From: Escherichia phage vB_EcoM_LNA2
Strand: one strand, 5' to 3'
DNA length: 64,000 bases
Sequence record: MZ311865.1
The notes beneath the pieces are model-generated. The model saw only the letters and a list, made by a program, of their open reading frames with translations. It ran no database searches and was not told the DNA's origin. This document shows positions 697 through 52,839 of this stretch, one piece after another. Made by a program: the position numbers and the translations under genes. Numbering within the stretch: position 1 is the stretch's first letter; each line of letters begins with the position of its first letter.

Positions 697-3600
697 CAGT
701 AAAAGCGCCAGCAGTCACAAGTCTCAGAATATCCAAGTTGTCCGCTAACCAAGTTCAAATACGCTGGGATGACGTTGGTGCTAATTTCTACTATTTCGTA
801 GAAATCGCTGAGACTAAAACGGCAGACGGGGAAATAATTCCCCCTGCCAGCTACAGATGGATAAATTTAGGATATACTCCTAATAGCAACTGGTTCGAAA
901 GTAGCTTAGACCCATTAACTTCTTATATTATTCGTGTATCAACTGCCGCCGAAGGCTTCGAGAGATCTGATTGGGTATATACCGAAATATTTGAATCATT
1001 TCAGACTAACGCGTATACATTTCAACATATGATTGAAATGCAATTGGCTAACACTTTTATTAGAGAAAAATTTACAAATAACAACATGGCTTATGTCGAT
1101 TTTAATAACGACACTATAATGGCAGCTCTAATGAATGAATCGTTCCAATTTAGCCCTGCTTATGCAGATATTTCATCTATTAAAAATTTCATTATTGGCG
1201 AAAATGAGTATCATGAAATTCAAGGTTCGATTCAACAGGTGTGTCATGATATAAACCGTGTTTATTTGATGGAATCCGAAGGAATTCTTTATTTGTTTGA
1301 ACGGTATCAGCCTGTGGTTAAAGTCTCTAATGATAAGGGACAAACCTGGAAATCAGTTAAATTGTTTAATGACCGTGTAGGGTACCCTGTATCAAGAACA
1401 GTGTATTACCAGACAGGTTATACCACGTATGTTCTTGGGTATGATAAATTATTTTACGGCCGTAAATCAACTGACGTTCGTTGGTCTGCTGATGATGTGA
1501 GATTTAGTTCTCAAGATATAACATTTGCTAAAATTGGTGACCAGTTAAATTTAGGATTTGATGTAGAAATATTTGGTAACTACGCATCATTACCTGCTAA
1601 CGTATCACGTATTGCAGAAGCTATCGTTTGCAACGACGATTATGTATACGTTGCTGCTCGAGATAAAGTTCGTTTTATTAAAACTAGTAATGCCCCTATT
1701 GATTCAGACCCGTTATCTCCGACATATTCCGAACGTTTGTTTGAACAAGAAACATTTAACATCACAGGTAACCCTAAGGCAGTTTGCTATAAAATGGATT
1801 CTGTTGGCGGTAAAATATTTGCACTGATTATCGGCGAAGTTGTTAATCTTAATGACGACCCGAGGACCACTCCTATTGTTGATTCTGCTGATAAGGGCGT
1901 TTACGTTCTAGACCATGATGCTGGCACATTTAAACGTGTGTTTGGTAATACTGAAGAAGAACGCCGTCGTATTGAACCTGGGTACACCAGTATGTCTACT
2001 GATGGTGTTGAGTTATCTATTTCATCTAGTAATTTTAAATTTCTAGAATCGGATATTGTTGATGACCCAAAAACACAAATCAAGTACGGTTTAATCGGTG
2101 CTGTTAAATATGAGTATCCTCGCGAATGGTTGGCTGATAAACATTATCATATGATGGCATTTATTTCAACTGAAGACTCTCAATGGGAATCGTTCACTCC
2201 TCAACCGATGGAATACTACGCTGAGCCATTCTTTAGTTATTCTAGAAAGTCCGGTACTCGATGTTGGATTAATAACTCAGACAAGGCTGTTGTAATTTAT
2301 TCTGATTTACTTTACACTAAGGTTATTGAGAATCATCCACTTAGTTCTTCAGACCGTGAAGTTCATGAATATTGGAAGGACGGTGACTGTACAATAGTGA
2401 TGCCTAACGTAGATTTCACCGGATTTAAAAAATATGCATCCGGCATGATTTTCTATAAATCATCAGGTGAGATTATTTCTTATTATGATTTTAGTTATCG
2501 TGTTAGAGATAATGTTTCTATAATTTGGAAGCCTACTAATATATTCTTAACAGCATCGTTACAAAACCAAGAAAAAGATACCACATGGACTCCTGTAGAA
2601 GAGAACGGTATTGCAGACCCAGATTTACGACCATTGCTCACTACAATGATGCCGGAGTCTTATCTTTTAGATAATACAAACTTCGAAGCATTCTGCGAGG
2701 CTTATATTCAGTATCTTTCTGACGGTTATGGGACTCATTATAACAACCTTTTAAATCTTATTAAAAATCAATATCCGCGAGAAGAACATGCGTGGGAATA
2801 TTTATGGTCTGAGATTTATAAACGAAACATTTACTTAAACGCCGAAAAACGCGATTTAGTGTCTCGTTTCTTTGAATCAAGAAGTTATGACTTCTATTCA
2901 ACTAAAGGAACCGAAGCGTCATATAAATTCTTGTTTAAAGTGCTTTATAACGAAGATGTTGAAATTGAAATTGAATCTAGTTCCGGGACCGAATATGATA
3001 TCATCATTGAATCTGATTCGTTGACAGAAGATTTGGTCGGACAAACCATATACACCGCTACAGGACGTTGTAATGTGACGTATATCGAGAGAAGTTACTC
3101 TAAAGGTAAATTACAATGGACTGTAACAATTCACAACCTCTTAGGTCGTTTAATCCAAGGACAGGAAGTTAAAGCTGAAAGACTCCCTGGTTTTGAAGGT
3201 GAAATTGTTCGTGGTATTAAAGGTAAAGAGCTTTCTCAGAACAACATCGATTACATAAATCGTGGTAGAGCATACTACGTAATGAAGATTAAATCTAAAC
3301 TTCCATCATCTCGTTGGAAATCAGACGTATTACGTTTTGTTCATCCGGTTGGATTTGGATTTATCGCAATTACCCTTCTCACAATGTTTATTAACACCGG
3401 ATTAACACTTAAACATGTTGAAACCATTATTAATAAATACAAAAACTATAAGTGGGATTCTGGATTACCAACTAAATATGCAGACCGAGTGGCTAAATTA
3501 GACCCACAAGGAAATGTTGAGTTTGACCCTATTACAGGTAAAGCGATATATGAAATAGGCCCTATGGCTGGTCAAGATTATCCATTGCCTGAAGATTATA

Positions 3601-3791
3601 ACGCTGAAAACAATAACTCCATATTTCAAGGTCAACTTCCATCGGAACGACGTAAACTGATGAGCCCATTATTTGATGCGTCCGGAACAACATTCTCTAG
3701 ATTTAGAGATTTGGTTGAACAACGGTTAATCGATAATGTAGGAAATCCAAGAGACCCCGTGAATCCACCACAGGTTAAATTAGATGAATGA
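693..3791 (+). CDS. 7: Baseplate wedge protein gp7
   Basis: 1032 aa ORF, same length as T4 gp7 as recalled; T4 synteny 6-7-8. Confidence 0.93.
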   Translation: MTVKAPAVTSLRISKLSANQVQIRWDDVGANFYYFVEIAETKTADGEIIPPASYRWINLGYTPNSNWFESSLDPLTSYIIRVSTAAEGFERSDWVYTEIFESFQTNAYTFQHMIEMQLANTFIREKFTNNNMAYVDFNNDTIMAALMNESFQFSPAYADISSIKNFIIGENEYHEIQGSIQQVCHDINRVYLMESEGILYLFERYQPVVKVSNDKGQTWKSVKLFNDRVGYPVSRTVYYQTGYTTYVLGYDKLFYGRKSTDVRWSADDVRFSSQDITFAKIGDQLNLGFDVEIFGNYASLPANVSRIAEAIVCNDDYVYVAARDKVRFIKTSNAPIDSDPLSPTYSERLFEQETFNITGNPKAVCYKMDSVGGKIFALIIGEVVNLNDDPRTTPIVDSADKGVYVLDHDAGTFKRVFGNTEEERRRIEPGYTSMSTDGVELSISSSNFKFLESDIVDDPKTQIKYGLIGAVKYEYPREWLADKHYHMMAFISTEDSQWESFTPQPMEYYAEPFFSYSRKSGTRCWINNSDKAVVIYSDLLYTKVIENHPLSSSDREVHEYWKDGDCTIVMPNVDFTGFKKYASGMIFYKSSGEIISYYDFSYRVRDNVSIIWKPTNIFLTASLQNQEKDTTWTPVEENGIADPDLRPLLTTMMPESYLLDNTNFEAFCEAYIQYLSDGYGTHYNNLLNLIKNQYPREEHAWEYLWSEIYKRNIYLNAEKRDLVSRFFESRSYDFYSTKGTEASYKFLFKVLYNEDVEIEIESSSGTEYDIIIESDSLTEDLVGQTIYTATGRCNVTYIERSYSKGKLQWTVTIHNLLGRLIQGQEVKAERLPGFEGEIVRGIKGKELSQNNIDYINRGRAYYVMKIKSKLPSSRWKSDVLRFVHPVGFGFIAITLLTMFINTGLTLKHVETIINKYKNYKWDSGLPTKYADRVAKLDPQGNVEFDPITGKAIYEIGPMAGQDYPLPEDYNAENNNSIFQGQLPSERRKLMSPLFDASGTTFSRFRDLVEQRLIDNVGNPRDPVNPPQVKLDE

Positions 3792-4788
3792 TTCAAGTGT
3801 TATCTATCGTGCAATAGTTACATCAAAATTTAGAACAGAGAAAATGCTGAATTTTTATAATTCAGTTGGGGATGGAGATGATAAGAACTCCATTTATATT
3901 ACGTTTGGACGTTCAGAGCCTTGGGCGTCAAATGAAAATGAGGTGGGCTTCGCCCCACCTTATCCTACAGATTCTGTTCTTGGTGTTACTGATATGTGGA
4001 CCCATATGATGGGCACCGTTAAAGTTTTACCTTCAATGTTAGATTCTGTTATTCCTAGACGTGATTGGGGAGATGTGCGATATCCAGACCCTTACACGTT
4101 TAGAATTAACGATATAGTCGCATGTAATACTGCTCCGTACAACGCGACAGAAGTTGGAGCTGGTTGGTTAATTTACCGTTGTTTAGATGTCCCTGACGTA
4201 GGGCTCTGTTCAATAGAATCTTTAGATAATAAAGATGAATGTCTTAAATTGGGTGGTAAATGGACTCCGTCTGTTCGTTCTATGTCTCCTCCTGAAGGCA
4301 GAGGCGATGCTAATGGGGTTATCGAAACCGGTGATGGATATATTTGGGAATATCTTTATGAGATTCCTGCCGATGTGTCAATTAACCGTTGCACTAACGA
4401 ATATCTTGTAGTTCCATGGCCGGAAGAAATTAAAGAAGACCCCACCCGTTGGGGATATGAAAATAACTTAACTTGGCAACAAGATGACTACGGTTTGATT
4501 TACCGTGTTAAAGCTAATACGATGCGGTTTAAAGCATATTTTGATTCTGTTTATTTCCCTGAGGCAGCTTTGCCTGGTAACAAGGGTTTTAGACAGATAT
4601 CAATTATCGCAAACCCGTTAGAAGCTAAGAAAAATCCAAATGACCCTAATGTTAAAGCAGAAAAGGATTATTACGACCCTAGAGACCTGCAACGTCATTC
4701 TGGTGAAATGATTTATATGGAAAACCGACCACCTGTTATTATGGCAATGGACCAAACAGAAGAAATTAACATTTTGTTTATGTTTTAA
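3784..4788 (+). CDS. 8: Baseplate wedge protein gp8
   Basis: 334 aa, matches T4 gp8 length and position; followed by UUCG hairpin terminator. Confidence 0.93.
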   Translation: MNDSSVIYRAIVTSKFRTEKMLNFYNSVGDGDDKNSIYITFGRSEPWASNENEVGFAPPYPTDSVLGVTDMWTHMMGTVKVLPSMLDSVIPRRDWGDVRYPDPYTFRINDIVACNTAPYNATEVGAGWLIYRCLDVPDVGLCSIESLDNKDECLKLGGKWTPSVRSMSPPEGRGDANGVIETGDGYIWEYLYEIPADVSINRCTNEYLVVPWPEEIKEDPTRWGYENNLTWQQDDYGLIYRVKANTMRFKAYFDSVYFPEAALPGNKGFRQISIIANPLEAKKNPNDPNVKAEKDYYDPRDLQRHSGEMIYMENRPPVIMAMDQTEEINILFMF

Positions 4789-48021: not shown

Positions 48022-48270
48022 TTACTTCAGGGTAATAATAAAATGACGTACTGCTTTACGTGCGGCAGAAGCCAGAGGCTTAGCATATTTCAATTCATCT
48101 TTCTGGACCAGGATATCGCGAAGATCGGCTTGTGCTGGATTCAGATGTTTGAAATACTGTAAGATTTCGAGGGCTTCGGCTTCGACATCAATAGATGCAC
48201 CGTAATTTTCGTGGCCATTATTCCATGCATGGCGTTGCAGTTCAAGAGCGTGTTGTAATTGTTTAATCAT
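48022..48270 (-). CDS. rIII: Lysis inhibition accessory protein rIII
   Basis: 82 aa as in T4 rIII; position between the 30.x region and gene 31. Confidence 0.85.
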   Translation of the reverse strand: MIKQLQHALELQRHAWNNGHENYGASIDVEAEALEILQYFKHLNPAQADLRDILVQKDELKYAKPLASAARKAVRHFIITLK

Positions 48271-48386
48271 TTTAAATTCTCAATTCGAGACAATATTTAG
48301 TAGCCACGTTCGTCTGAATTTCACCTTCTTTCGACAGGTCTCTCAGTTGTAGGCTACCGCTTAGAAGAGTGTTCTCTTCATATAGT

Positions 48387-48394
48387 TATTTATA
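48387..48394 (-). promoter_or_regulatory. Candidate late promoter for rIII
   Basis: Minus-strand TATAAATA directly after the gene 31 stop. Confidence 0.5.
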
Positions 48395-48727
48395 TCACTT
48401 ATAAAGACACGGAATAGCTTTATAGTGGCATGTTACGAATTTCTGTTTAATTTCTTTAGGTTGTTTAAGTCCCAAAGCCACAAATGGATGTGGAACATTT
48501 CGAATTTGTCCAACTGGTATTGGAGTCAAATCACCGACTTCAACAAAACCTTCAGGAACATCAGGACCTACAGAATGAACTACACATAGTTCAGGAACTT
48601 CACCTTGAACACGTTTACCAATCACAAGTCCTGATTCTGTAACTTCTTCATCACCTGCTTGAGCTGGTTCAGAAACCAGAATGACATATTCACCAACAGC
48701 ACGAATTGGGAGTTGTACTTCAGACAT
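48395..48727 (-). CDS. 31: Head assembly co-chaperonin gp31 (GroES-like)
   Basis: 110 aa; T4 position and length; MotA-box middle promoter upstream. Confidence 0.9.
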
Positions 48728-48757
48728 CTTATTTCCTTGTTGTTTGACTATAGATTA

Positions 48758-48782
48758 ATAATACCATACTATTCGTAAAGCA
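48758..48782 (-). promoter_or_regulatory. MotA-dependent middle promoter for gene 31
   Basis: Minus strand reads TGCTTTA, 12 bp, TATTAT. Confidence 0.6.
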
Positions 48783-48784
48783 TA

Positions 48785-49081
48785 TTACATAAGAAGCAAA
48801 CGTTCCGCCGGAGTACCATCAACCGAAATTACTTTATCAAGGCGGAAAGAACGCCACTGGCCTAACTTGGTATCGAATGCTCGAACTGATTCACGAGGTT
48901 CATAACGAACTTCTGTTGCTGGATTGTTATTTTCATATTTGACTTCAAGTTCATCGCGCGAAGCAAACATAGTGCGTACCTCGCCGTTAGCCTTTTCAAA
49001 TACAACACAATGAACGCCTACAGACAGAATAGTTTTAATACGTTCACGAAGAACCATAGTTTCTTGTTCAGTTAAAATCAT
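48785..49081 (-). CDS. Hypothetical protein (31.1-like position)
   Basis: ATG at 49081 overlaps the cd stop; 98 aa; ORF-track start is GTG. Confidence 0.65.
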   Translation of the reverse strand: MILTEQETMVLRERIKTILSVGVHCVVFEKANGEVRTMFASRDELEVKYENNNPATEVRYEPRESVRAFDTKLGQWRSFRLDKVISVDGTPAERLLLM

Positions 49082-49082
49082 A

Positions 49083-49664
49083 TTATTCACCACAAAAGTT
49101 TCGGATTTGTTCCCAATTCAGAGAACGAAGATTATTACGAGAGTACTGAATTACTTCAATACCGGCTTGTTTTAGAATGTCTGCCCAATTTTCAGGAGAT
49201 CGATCGTATAATTCTGCGTATACAACCTTTTTAATACCTGACTGCGTAATAGCTTTAGTGCAATCAGGACATGGAGAAAGCGTCGTATATAACGTAGCGC
49301 CTTCAATAGAATTACCTTTACGAGCTGCAAACAAAATTGCATTCAATTCTGCATGGATTTCATTATTAGCAGACCATGCACTATGAGCGGCCCGATGTTC
49401 TTTAGCCAAAACAAAATTATCTGCCCGTCCAAATGCTGTAGTGCCTTCTTTATGTCCAGCAACGATGACCGGGCTTGGTTTATTCTTCAACCAACCATTT
49501 TCGGATGCATGTTCACAACAGTTAACGCCACCTGCTGGTGAGCCATTATATCCAGTAGAGATAATGCGCCCATCTTTTTCAATGACTGCGCCAACTTTCC
49601 ATGAACAACATTTTGATTCTTGAGAAATCAGATATGCAATCTGAAGGTATGTGCTAGCTTTCAT
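49083..49664 (-). CDS. cd: dCMP deaminase
   Basis: 193 aa as in T4 Cd; zinc-binding deaminase motifs HAE...PCPDC. Confidence 0.95.
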   Translation of the reverse strand: MKASTYLQIAYLISQESKCCSWKVGAVIEKDGRIISTGYNGSPAGGVNCCEHASENGWLKNKPSPVIVAGHKEGTTAFGRADNFVLAKEHRAAHSAWSANNEIHAELNAILFAARKGNSIEGATLYTTLSPCPDCTKAITQSGIKKVVYAELYDRSPENWADILKQAGIEVIQYSRNNLRSLNWEQIRNFCGE

Positions 49665-50656
49665 TATTGAACCTTATTAATATAAGTTAACAGCTCTTTA
49701 GTTTGTTCCCAACTGATGCACGCATCGGTAACGGAAACGCCATAGGACATATTATCAGAAATTTTTTGATTTCCTTCATGTAGGAATGATTCTATCATAA
49801 TTCCTTTGACCAAATCATTAGCTGCTAAATTTTTACCAATACCAATTTGATTGCTATAATGTCCATCAGCGTTTGCATGGCTACAGTCAACCATTACATA
49901 ATGATTCAGACCTACTGCCCTTGCTTTGTTAGAAGCTTCTTGAATATCAGAAGAATGATAGTTCGGGCCGTTGGTCCCGCCACGCAATACGATATGCGTA
50001 TTCTGATTACCTTCAGCTTCAACAATGCCTACAGTACCATCGACGTCCATACCCATATACCGATGAGGCCAGGCGGCACTATACATCGCGTCTGTAGCTA
50101 CTTTAATAGAACCATTGGTTGCGTTCTTGAAGCCTACGCACATCGGTAGACCTGAAGCAATTTCACGATGTGTCTGACTTTCAGTCGTACGGGCGCCAAT
50201 AGCAACCCATGAGAAAATACCAGAAAGATACTTAATCGTGAATGGGTCTAATACTTCAGTTGCTAATGGAAGTCCCATACGTAGAAGTTTACGACACAAT
50301 GTTCGTGCAACTATAAGACCGTGGTTCATATCAAAACTTCCGTCAAGATATGGATCATTTACAAGACCTTTCCAACCTACGGTAGTTCGAGGCTTTTCAA
50401 AATAAACGCGCATCACTAACAGAACATTAGGAAGACGAGTTTGAAGTTCAGCCAGACGTTTGCCGTATTCAACAGCAGCAATAGGGTCATGAATTGAACA
50501 AGGACCTACAACAATAAGTTTGCGTGGGTCTTCACCATTCATAATCGAATTAACTTGTTCGCGATGAGAAGCCACTTGTGATGCGTAAGCTTCCGACAAA
50601 GGAATAATCTCAGCTAGTTCTTTTGGAGAAATAAGTTTTCCGACGACAGGTAACAT
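49664..50656 (-). CDS. 3-deoxy-D-arabino-heptulosonate 7-phosphate (DAHP) synthase, AroG/AroF/AroH class I-alpha
   Basis: 330 aa; hallmark AroG motifs KLIVVGPCSIHDP, YFEKPRTTVGWKGLVNDP, IGARTTESQTHREIASGL, IVLRGG, MVDCSHAN, ESFLHEGNQ; stop overlaps the cd start (TAATG); RBS AAGGA. Confidence 0.93.
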   Translation of the reverse strand: MLPVVGKLISPKELAEIIPLSEAYASQVASHREQVNSIMNGEDPRKLIVVGPCSIHDPIAAVEYGKRLAELQTRLPNVLLVMRVYFEKPRTTVGWKGLVNDPYLDGSFDMNHGLIVARTLCRKLLRMGLPLATEVLDPFTIKYLSGIFSWVAIGARTTESQTHREIASGLPMCVGFKNATNGSIKVATDAMYSAAWPHRYMGMDVDGTVGIVEAEGNQNTHIVLRGGTNGPNYHSSDIQEASNKARAVGLNHYVMVDCSHANADGHYSNQIGIGKNLAANDLVKGIMIESFLHEGNQKISDNMSYGVSVTDACISWEQTKELLTYINKVQ

Positions 50657-50776
50657 AACAATCCTTAGGAGATATAAACAGATTCTGATTCAACAATACC
50701 TTTAACCGGATTAGACAGGCTAAGTTGGTAGTGCTCAGATTTATGACCATTCTCGATAGTAATGAGATAGCTCTCA

Positions 50777-51013
50777 TTATAGTGTTCCATATACTCGAGT
50801 TGCTTCAACAAGACCATCGCTGCCTAATTTAAGATTAGTAATTTGGTCACCATCTTTAGGATTAACGATTATGAGAAAAGAACGTGGAGATTCTTGAATA
50901 ACTCGTAATGTTGCATCTTGGAAACGTTCAGACACTTTATTGATGAGTGCTTGAGCAAATTCTTTTACTTTAATCTGAAATTCGTGTACTGTAATTGGGT
51001 TTTCACTTAGCAT
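50777..51013 (-). CDS. Hypothetical protein (cd.x-like)
   Basis: 78 aa ORF; RBS GAGGAAA; early-type promoter upstream. Confidence 0.7.
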   Translation of the reverse strand: MLSENPITVHEFQIKVKEFAQALINKVSERFQDATLRVIQESPRSFLIIVNPKDGDQITNLKLGSDGLVEATRVYGTL

Positions 51014-51041
51014 TTCTATTTCCTCATTTGTTGGTAGAGTT

Positions 51042-51071
51042 ATAGTATCACAACTCCACCATGTTGTAAAC
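51042..51071 (-). promoter_or_regulatory. Early-type promoter for the 78-aa ORF / DAHP synthase / cd transcription unit
   Basis: Minus strand GTTTAC, 18 bp, TACTAT; no other promoter motif seen before DAHP synthase. Confidence 0.5.
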
Positions 51072-51073
51072 CA

Positions 51074-51349
51074 TTAAATTGCTTTGCATTCAATTTTTTG
51101 TGTACCGAAATTGATATCACATTGGATAACTAAATCGCCGTCAAGATCAAATACCACTATGACGTGTGCAGACCCAGGGAGAAGAGTAATAGCAATAGAA
51201 TCTACTTGGTCTGGGAGCAAAGCATTGAGTACATGAGTTAGTTGAGCATGAACTCTGAGTTCGGCTGCATTATCAAGCACTTCAAACATATTATTAGCAA
51301 TAATCTGACTGAAGACTACCTTTACAATTTCAGAATAAGTTGGGAACAT
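51074..51349 (-). CDS. Hypothetical protein (cd.x-like)
   Basis: 91 aa ORF with ATG. Confidence 0.65.
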   Translation of the reverse strand: MFPTYSEIVKVVFSQIIANNMFEVLDNAAELRVHAQLTHVLNALLPDQVDSIAITLLPGSAHVIVVFDLDGDLVIQCDINFGTQKIECKAI

Positions 51350-51356
51350 AATTACC

Positions 51357-51581
51357 TCAGTGTACAGTATTTACTTTAACTCGAACAACAAATCGCTCGG
51401 TCGGTTCACCTACAGGAACAAACTCTACATGATATTCACCTTTGTAACGAGTATTCAGATCATTACGAATTCCTGCGAGTTTGTTGATTAATGTAGGACT
51501 CATATTAAGTCCCACTAGTTCACGAAGCATTTTGTATGCTTCATCTTCGATTTCATGATGTTTATCGTACATAGTTTTCAT
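51357..51581 (-). CDS. Hypothetical protein (cd.x-like)
   Basis: 74 aa ORF with ATG. Confidence 0.65.
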   Translation of the reverse strand: MKTMYDKHHEIEDEAYKMLRELVGLNMSPTLINKLAGIRNDLNTRYKGEYHVEFVPVGEPTERFVVRVKVNTVH

Positions 51582-51752
51582 TTAACCATTCAATTGCCTG
51601 GTCGACGTTATCAAATATACCGCCGTCCAACCATTCTTCATGTTCATAGTCCAGCACATCAATACCGAACCGTCCATTTACTAAAGGCCATACTACAAAC
51701 AAATATTCTTTATGCTGTTCGATGGCCTCAATCACTTCATATAATCGTTTCA

Positions 51753-51753
<1 letters not shown>
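51562..51753 (-). CDS. Hypothetical protein (cd.x-like)
   Basis: 63 aa ORF with ATG; overlaps neighbours. Confidence 0.6.

Positions 51754-52839
<1,086 letters not shown>

Follow-up and report, generated by a model that had tools for sequence, protein, structure and literature searches.

An AroF-like DAHP synthase gene of T4-like phages with a remodelled inhibitor site and probably altered feedback

The committed, flux-controlling step of aromatic and chorismate biosynthesis is catalyzed by DAHP (3-deoxy-D-arabinoheptulosonate 7-phosphate) synthase, for which Escherichia coli encodes the three isozymes AroF, AroG and AroH. Engineered feedback-resistant (fbr) alleles of AroG and AroF are standard tools in strains that produce aromatic compounds. 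Several of the residues behind such resistance have been described. AroG P150L is completely resistant to phenylalanine (Phe), and S180F and F209A/S are resistant as well; AroG Q151 (AroF Q152) and AroG S180 (AroF S181) contact the main chain of the inhibitor, and D155 holds a stabilizing salt bridge (PMC9529685). In AroF, replacement of Gln152 or deletion of Ile11 gives an enzyme that is insensitive to tyrosine (Tyr) (PMC5791370). Genes for this enzyme have also been noticed in phages. The phiC120 genome paper reports a DAHP synthetase domain in open reading frame (ORF) 64 (PMC8022965), and a survey of Klebsiella phages calls a Kanagawavirus copy an amino-acid auxiliary metabolic gene (AMG) (PMC11845039). 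Here, we analyze the copy found in Escherichia phage vB_EcoM_LNA2 (sequence record MZ311865.1), in a stretch of 64,000 nucleotides that we call the window. The gene and its ribosome-binding region lie as follows.

49664..50656, minus strand: DAHP synthase gene (type I-alpha, AroF-like phage clade), 330 amino acids (aa), recognized by its ORF, family profiles, PDB match and catalytic residues
50657..50686, minus strand: ribosome-binding region of the DAHP synthase gene, AAGGA 5 nt 5' of the ATG at 50656, by direct reading

As a gene, it is already known and widely annotated, and there is no novelty in its presence. Its DNA is 99.6-99.8% identical to many deposited Mosigvirus genomes (PhAPEC2, O157 typing phages, Shf125875, phiC120 and others), and the protein is 100% identical to the DAHP synthase of several of them. 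A megablast search matched 145 phage records, 139 of which have the gene at 95% DNA identity or above, and tblastn found it in 212 phage records, among them phages of Klebsiella, Enterobacter, Edwardsiella, Serratia, Erwinia and Proteus at 58-77% identity. The usual GenBank labels are aroF, AroG, DAHP synthetase or phospho-2-dehydro-3-deoxyheptonate aldolase, and some records have it as a hypothetical protein. In PHROGs v4 the whole protein, residues 1-330, aligns to positions 8-337 of the 341-position profile phrog_5045 (E=3.2e-182), a phospho-2-dehydro-3-deoxyheptonate aldolase that is filed under 'moron, auxiliary metabolic gene and host takeover'. This family and the annotated Straboviridae aroF genes (PhAPEC2 gp185, Shf125875 gp195, phiC120 ORF64, Kanagawavirus KLB31) represent the same gene at the same locus without material difference, and the records and both phage papers give a domain name or an AMG label only (PMC8022965; PMC11845039). 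An earlier description of the window, made from its letters and ORFs and called here the sequence-only reading, had left open whether close relatives carry such an annotation; they do so in large numbers, both in GenBank and in PHROGs. A comment on the regulatory site was not found in the searchable material of the deposited records or of the two papers (PMC8022965; PMC11845039). What we add is modest and testable, a remodelling of the allosteric pocket throughout the phage clade, of which we found no report.

The reading frame at 49664..50656 (minus strand) is uninterrupted over 330 codons, and its translation contains all six signature motifs that the sequence-only reading had quoted as the full DAHP synthase set. 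The protein matches DAHP_synth_1 in Pfam (E=5e-75) and passes, over its full length, the NCBIfam aroFGH equivalog TIGR00034 with 427.7 bits against a cut-off of 173.2, as well as the PRK12755 model (455.1 bits, cut-off 343). The top match in the PDB is E. coli AroF (6agm, E=5e-105), with residues 8-327 on AroF 17-344, and AroG follows in second place (E=3.7e-91). The active site is complete. The metal tetrad C53/H260/E289/D311 corresponds to AroG C61/H268/E302/D326, the phosphoenolpyruvate (PEP) ligands R83, K88, G154-A155-R156, K177 and R225 correspond to AroG R92, K97, G163-A164-R165, K186 and R234, and the KPRTT loop for the phosphate of erythrose 4-phosphate (E4P) is intact at positions 88-92. 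These residues are invariant across an alignment of 128 sequences, of which 30 belong to the phage clade and 98 are cellular; the AroG catalytic positions are those of the structures of Shumilin and Kretsinger. Hence, the earlier proposal of a full-length class I-alpha enzyme is borne out by the equivalog, the PDB match and the catalytic residues, and the alignment to AroF, AroG and AroH that had been suggested with it finds all metal and PEP ligands kept. The sequence-only reading had also named 3-deoxy-D-manno-octulosonate 8-phosphate (KDO8P) synthase as a profile match to be checked; this enzyme, like any other PF00793 member, is ruled out as the aroFGH-specific equivalog is far exceeded and every residue specific to DAHP synthases is kept. 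We assign the ORF, as far as sequence and profiles can tell, as a phage-encoded full-length type I-alpha DAHP synthase with AroF as its nearest relative.

The label 'AroG-type', by which the gene had been introduced, is imprecise, because the protein fails the AroG equivalog (NCBIfam NF006723; 363.2 bits, cut-off 568), because its identity to the three MG1655 isozymes is highest for AroF (51%, compared to 47% for AroG and 43% for AroH), and because the isozyme-specificity position holds an AroF-type Gly (G202, equivalent to AroF G212, with Ser211 in AroG). The AroH model (NCBIfam NF009396) is failed as well, with 386 bits against a cut-off of 463. AroG-type pocket residues are missing, with G202, K142 and P171 standing at the positions of S211, Q151 and S180. 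Compared to AroF (6agm/6agl), the phage protein has the same metal, PEP and E4P-loop residues and the same specificity Gly; it differs by the absence of residues 2-10, by indels shared within the phage clade, by a shorter C-terminus and by a phage-like codon composition. Compared to AroG (1kfl/1gg1), the catalytic residues are shared, while S211 is replaced by Gly and M147 by Pro, both AroF-like. The deficit of about 20 residues at the N-terminus that had been estimated relative to AroG does not hold; alignment gives 8-9 residues relative to AroG and AroF, and the remainder of the overall shortening by 20-26 aa consists of internal deletions and the shorter C-terminus. The N-terminal extension is present, shorter by these 8-9 residues, and the inserted hairpin segment (AroG about 207-223) aligns without gaps, also to AroF. 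A longer N-terminus from an upstream start is ruled out because the ORF opens at the first start codon past an upstream in-frame stop, a good Shine-Dalgarno sequence precedes its ATG, and the N-terminal M-(L/R)-P-V-V-E is conserved across genera.

For the regulatory site, positions of inhibitor contacts were checked first. An unbiased scan then searched the alignment for columns in which the phage clade and the cellular homologs each reach a conservation of 90% or more, but with different residues. Only six such columns exist, while 98 columns are conserved and identical in the phage clade and the cellular enzymes. The six changes, from AroG to the phage protein, are P150 to I141, Q151 to K142, D155 to G146, S180 to P171, F209 to Y200 and T223 to A214, and each of these positions is at least 97% conserved across the phage genera. 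Read against AroF, they turn P151, Q152, D156, S181, F210 and T224 into I, K, G, P, Y and A; the same pocket substitutions thus separate the phage protein from both host isozymes. All six columns fall inside three short segments with published inhibitor-site residues, and a review lists five of them (P150, Q151, D155, S180 and F209) among the inhibitor contacts or the targets for feedback resistance. Lys and Pro at the two main-chain contacts occur in all sequences of the phage clade but one, which has Arg for Lys, compared to an essentially invariant Gln and Ser (one Thr) in the 98 cellular homologues. The number of residues before a conserved Pro (Pro11) is 8-12 in all 30 phage-clade sequences and 16-53 in the 98 cellular ones. 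The residues missing there presumably include Asp6/Asp7 of the partner subunit, which are reported to contact the inhibitor in AroG (Shumilin et al. 2002). Several of these natural changes affect positions that are known from engineered feedback-resistant enzymes (AroG P150L, S180F, F209A/S and D146N; AroF P148L, Q152I and delta-Ile11), namely AroG P150, Q151, S180 and F209 or AroF Q152, to which the N-terminal truncation is added. Compared by sequence alone, they differ from the engineered variants in the residues chosen, with I, K, P and Y in the phage enzyme instead of L, A/I, F and A/S, and D146 and the AroF-type P148 are unchanged. Because the pocket is specifically rebuilt while the catalytic core is untouched, the alignment supports the view that feedback by aromatic amino acids is altered and probably lost. 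Feedback insensitivity had been put forward before on account of the shorter N-terminus; the clade-wide remodelling of the inhibitor pocket backs this idea, and does so better than the truncation alone.

An ordinary Tyr-sensitive isozyme of the AroF type, which would keep host-like regulation and add DAHP synthase capacity after the shut-off of host expression, is what many GenBank records suggest by the label 'Tyr-sensitive'. AroF is indeed the closest characterized relative at 51% identity along the full length, and G202 is the AroF-type residue at the position that discriminates Phe- and Tyr-type enzymes. However, such labels are transferred by automated annotation, and the contacts that a Tyr-sensitive enzyme would need are gone: AroF Gln152 and Ser181 (AroG Gln151 and Ser180) are K142 and P171, with one Arg in the clade for the Lys, and an intact N-terminus around Ile11 is lacking. 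Since replacement of AroF Gln152 leads to Tyr-insensitivity (PMC5791370), we regard host-like regulation as very unlikely.

The gene does not look like a recent acquisition. G+C content at third codon positions is 28.7%, close to that of cd (25.8%) and pseT (32.0%), compared to 50-57% in E. coli aroF, aroG and aroH. The closest cellular proteins come from many phyla at 48-55% identity with none above 55%, and the phage clade forms one bipartition in 100 of 100 neighbor-joining bootstraps (30 phage-type sequences in the 128-sequence alignment). A recent capture from the host, or contamination, is ruled out by these three observations. Divergence of the enzyme from other genera (77, 68, 66, 67 and 58% identity) runs parallel to that of the dCMP deaminase Cd (79, 70, 75, 68 and 62%), and the ratio of nonsynonymous to synonymous substitution (dN/dS) against five other genera is 0.15-0.25, with synonymous divergence saturated. 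The gene is accordingly under purifying selection and an old resident of T4-like genomes. These values also bear on the idea that it might not be a working DAHP synthase at all, being instead a decaying host-derived passenger, an assembly contaminant, a KDO8P synthase or another PF00793 member. Such doubt is understandable as PF00793 also includes KDO8P synthases, as the phiC120 paper relates the domain to lipopolysaccharide as well as to aromatic amino-acid biosynthesis (PMC8022965), and as RB69, moha and T4 can dispense with the gene. However, the protein scores far above the cut-off of the aroFGH-specific equivalog, none of its catalytic residues varies across the alignment, the dN/dS and the phage-like codon composition speak against the idea, and the gene is found at the same locus in more than 200 phage records. 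On this sequence evidence the idea can be considered effectively refuted.

Expression was approached through the signals around the gene, and the promoter concerned is the following.

51042..51071, minus strand: T4-type early promoter between cd.3 and cd.2, TTTACA-17-TACTAT with a preceding G (GTTTACA) and TG in the spacer, scan score 9/12 with TG plus homology to T4

An early promoter, Pe133295, is noted in the T4 record for the interval of cd.2 and cd.3. The cd.3-cd.2 spacer of the window aligns to it base for base with both elements kept; the elements are equally conserved in RB69 and PhAPEC2. It is the sole GTTTAC[A/T] on the minus strand in 48900..52700. Support for this promoter comes from homology rather than from the match to a consensus, because the consensus scan gave 11 such hits in the region, no more than the 14.9 expected from shuffled sequence. 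Between the promoter and cd the scan found no terminator-like hairpin, late promoter motif or MotA-box promoter on the minus strand. A promoter of its own directly 5' of the DAHP synthase gene is rejected, as a late motif (TATAAATA), a MotA-box promoter and an early GTTTAC are all missing from the 120-nt spacer there; the only nearby hits of the sigma-70 kind are a weak one within the 3' end of the gene and others that lie on the opposite strand. The early-type promoter recognized by the sequence-only reading is hence confirmed as a homolog of Pe133295 without a terminator-like site before cd, and because of both observations early co-transcription of cd.2, the DAHP synthase gene and cd from 51042..51071 is a reasonable inference.

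Taken together, we favor a DAHP synthase that has long resided in these genomes, with an intact active site, transcribed early and made feedback-insensitive by its rebuilt pocket, and we give this a probability of roughly 0.7. Several points weigh against it. The clustering of the six columns reaches a Fisher p of 5e-6 with segments that we delimited ourselves by the positions of published mutants, in part once the residues had been seen, and T223 is not a published inhibitor-site residue. Within the phage clade, conservation is stronger in the rebuilt segments than elsewhere in the protein (0.66 vs. 1.11 bits, p=0.005); the pocket is therefore not simply decaying, and its conservation would fit a part in the structure of the dimer interface or another ligand as well as lost regulation. 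A carboxylate could still be bound by the Lys that replaces Gln. The gene is dispensable, since it is absent from RB69, moha and T4, and literature searches found no experimental work (enzyme assay, complementation, transcript map) on any phage DAHP synthase.

The conservation of the pocket invites the thought that the enzyme is active and that the rebuilt site binds a different effector, such as a nucleotide, an intermediate of the folate or chorismate branch or another amino acid, by which pathway entry would be steered according to the needs of the phage. We consider this rather unlikely. It draws on the six positions being at least 97% conserved across genera with saturated synonymous sites, on a conservation of the pocket segments that exceeds that of the remaining protein, on a new Lys and Tyr that are able to make ligand contacts, and on the place of the gene in a nucleotide-precursor cluster (cd), with which it is probably transcribed; dihydrofolate reductase and thymidylate synthase lie a few kb off in the L017 contig. 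However, packing at the tight-dimer interface would explain the same conservation equally well, the phage enzymes lack the N-terminal lid by which host enzymes close the pocket, and the changes from Ser to Pro and from Pro to Ile resemble those that abolish binding in engineered host enzymes; the ligand, moreover, is not inferable from sequence. That the DAHP synthases of T4-like phages form a distinct regulatory class, marked by the strictly conserved I-K-G-P-Y-A pocket and the truncated N-terminal lid, with a live site that would couple chorismate-pathway entry to a phage-specific signal such as nucleotide or folate status in place of aromatic amino acids, is likewise a tentative and rather doubtful suggestion.

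Returning to the feedback-insensitive enzyme that we favor, a plausible course of events can be sketched. The gene would probably be transcribed early from the promoter between cd.3 and cd.2, sharing a single transcript with cd.2 and the gene for dCMP deaminase. Its product has the same catalytic core as the host enzymes AroF, AroG and AroH and a pocket for Phe, Tyr and tryptophan (Trp) that is rebuilt in every member of the phage clade, so that it likely no longer responds to feedback by aromatic amino acids. Carbon could in this way be kept flowing into the shikimate/chorismate pathway of the host when aromatics are plentiful and the host isozymes inhibited. Made independently of host transcription, the enzyme would supply DAHP to the remaining shikimate enzymes of the host even in aromatic-rich surroundings such as the gut, in which AroF, AroG and AroH of the host are repressed and inhibited. 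We infer a loss of feedback with a metabolic benefit in aromatic amino acids or in chorismate-derived cofactors, for example folate. In E. coli, feedback also controls the enzymes of the branches that lead to Phe, Tyr and Trp, and because of this the main gain may, speculatively, lie in chorismate and other products (p-aminobenzoate/folate, quinones) as much as in the aromatic amino acids. T4-like phages rely heavily on folate-dependent synthesis of deoxythymidine monophosphate and hydroxymethyl-dCMP. If the enzyme is truly feedback-insensitive, a lytic coliphage would seize the committed step of the pathway by removing host control and not just by adding enzyme, and it would offer an evolution-tested deregulated DAHP synthase for strains that produce aromatic compounds. 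The presence of the gene in most Mosigviruses and its absence from RB69 and moha provide near-isogenic material on its contribution.

The neighborhood of the gene is that of a T4-like genome, with the two flanking coding sequences given here.

49083..49664, minus strand: cd, dCMP deaminase, 193 aa, Pfam dCMP_cyt_deam_1 (E=1.5e-26), 73% identity to T4 Cd
50777..51013, minus strand: cd.2 homolog (DUF7320), the first gene after the promoter, Pfam E=1.5e-35 and PhAPEC2 annotation

Gene order in the window follows T4, with alc, pseT.3-.1, pseT, cd.4, cd.3, cd.2, the DAHP synthase gene, cd, 31.1, 31 and rIII. T4 itself has cd.2-cd.1-cd without a DAHP synthase, so the earlier statement that T4 carries only small cd.x ORFs at this place is right, the ORFs being cd.1 and cd.2. 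The slot between pseT and cd holds a DAHP synthase gene in Mosigvirus, Kanagawavirus (Entb_45), Kagamiyamavirus (EcS1), Marfavirus (EI), Winklervirus (X20) and Bragavirus (PM2), and a T4-like metagenomic contig has it in the same slot. A homolog of T4 Cd.1 lies between the DAHP synthase gene and cd in EcS1 (L006 3483..3818), X20 (L008 3498..3839) and PM2 (L009 3457..3732), and because of these homologs the fuller order is cd.2-DAHP synthase-cd.1-cd, from which T4 lacks the DAHP synthase and the lineage of the window lacks cd.1. In EI, two ORFs that resemble homing endonucleases stand between DAHP synthase and cd. Since ORFs separate the two genes in EcS1, X20, PM2 and EI, their direct abutment is specific to few lineages.

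In the window, the stop codon TAA of the DAHP synthase gene shares its last A with the ATG of cd at 49664 (CAATAATGAAA; TAATG), an overlap that the sequence-only reading had described correctly. It had also called the two genes translationally coupled. We reject such coupling as a sign of a particular functional relation to cd: overlaps of 1 nt and 4 nt are routine in the operon, for example at pseT/cd.4 and ORF230/pseT, and the adjacency is not kept in four other genera. At its other end, cd overlaps by 11 nt with the start of the 31.1 homolog (48785..49093, minus strand, 3' of cd), in which Pfam recognizes a WYL_2 / Sm-like SH3 beta-barrel domain (E=2e-9). Annotation noise affects the T4-type dCMP deaminase beside the DAHP synthase gene: several GenBank records call it 'ribD riboflavin biosynthesis protein' or 'tRNA-specific adenosine deaminase'. 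Homing-endonuclease genes (SegB-like, MobE-like, Seg-like) adjoin the DAHP synthase gene in EI (L007 981..1575 and 3510..4048) and PM2 (L009 1106..1822), and homing endonucleases are a possible vehicle for moving the DAHP synthase cassette between T4-like phages.

The sequence upstream of the gene points to the history of the segment in Mosigvirus, for which three further features are needed.

50657..50776, minus strand: 120-nt spacer, left over from the 3' part of another cd.2 (DUF7320) gene of foreign type, matching Pfam DUF7320 at positions 43-76 (E=1.3e-6) and phrog_15876 (E=3.8e-32)
50768..50780, minus strand: left copy of a 13-nt direct repeat, ATAATGAGAGCTA, bounding a 1113-bp segment
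49655..49667, minus strand: right copy of the direct repeat, ATAATGAAAGCTA, which includes the DAHP synthase stop and the cd start (TAATG), bounding the 1113-bp segment

The remnant can be read as a 50-aa ORF (50665..50817, minus strand) that starts inside cd.2 in another frame, and its identity is 46% to a Kanagawavirus cd.2-like protein and 36% to that of Marfavirus, compared to 25% to the window's own cd.2. The JK45 record annotates it as a coding sequence (gp197); this phage is filed under Tequatrovirus, and its DAHP synthase region is Mosigvirus-like. The direct repeat has the consensus ATAATGA(G/A)AGCTA and encloses 1113 bp, made up of the remnant and the DAHP synthase gene. RB69 and moha, both Mosigviruses, lack exactly this segment and have a single repeat copy at the cd.2/cd junction, and the remnant is present or absent together with the DAHP synthase gene, both being gone in these two phages. 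The boundaries of the segment are the footprint of one microhomology-mediated event. The segment may have come in from a related phage, with the second crossover inside cd, or it may have been deleted precisely in those lineages that lack it.

A comparison of window positions 48022..52652 with six further sequences (L001, L013, L014, L015, L016 and L011) shows that DAHP synthase gene and remnant are 98.9-100% identical among Mosigvirus species, while cd is at 93-97% and rIII at 84-96%. The cassette may have spread recently within Mosigvirus in a sweep, but cd.3 and the gene for gp31 are similarly uniform among these phages and the region is a recombination mosaic. Outside Straboviridae, distant homologs of the enzyme at 35-38% identity occur in Aeromonas phage HJ05 (L010 2399..3562) and in the human fecal phage contigs MT837410 and MT838377, and their unrelated phage contexts suggest independent acquisitions.

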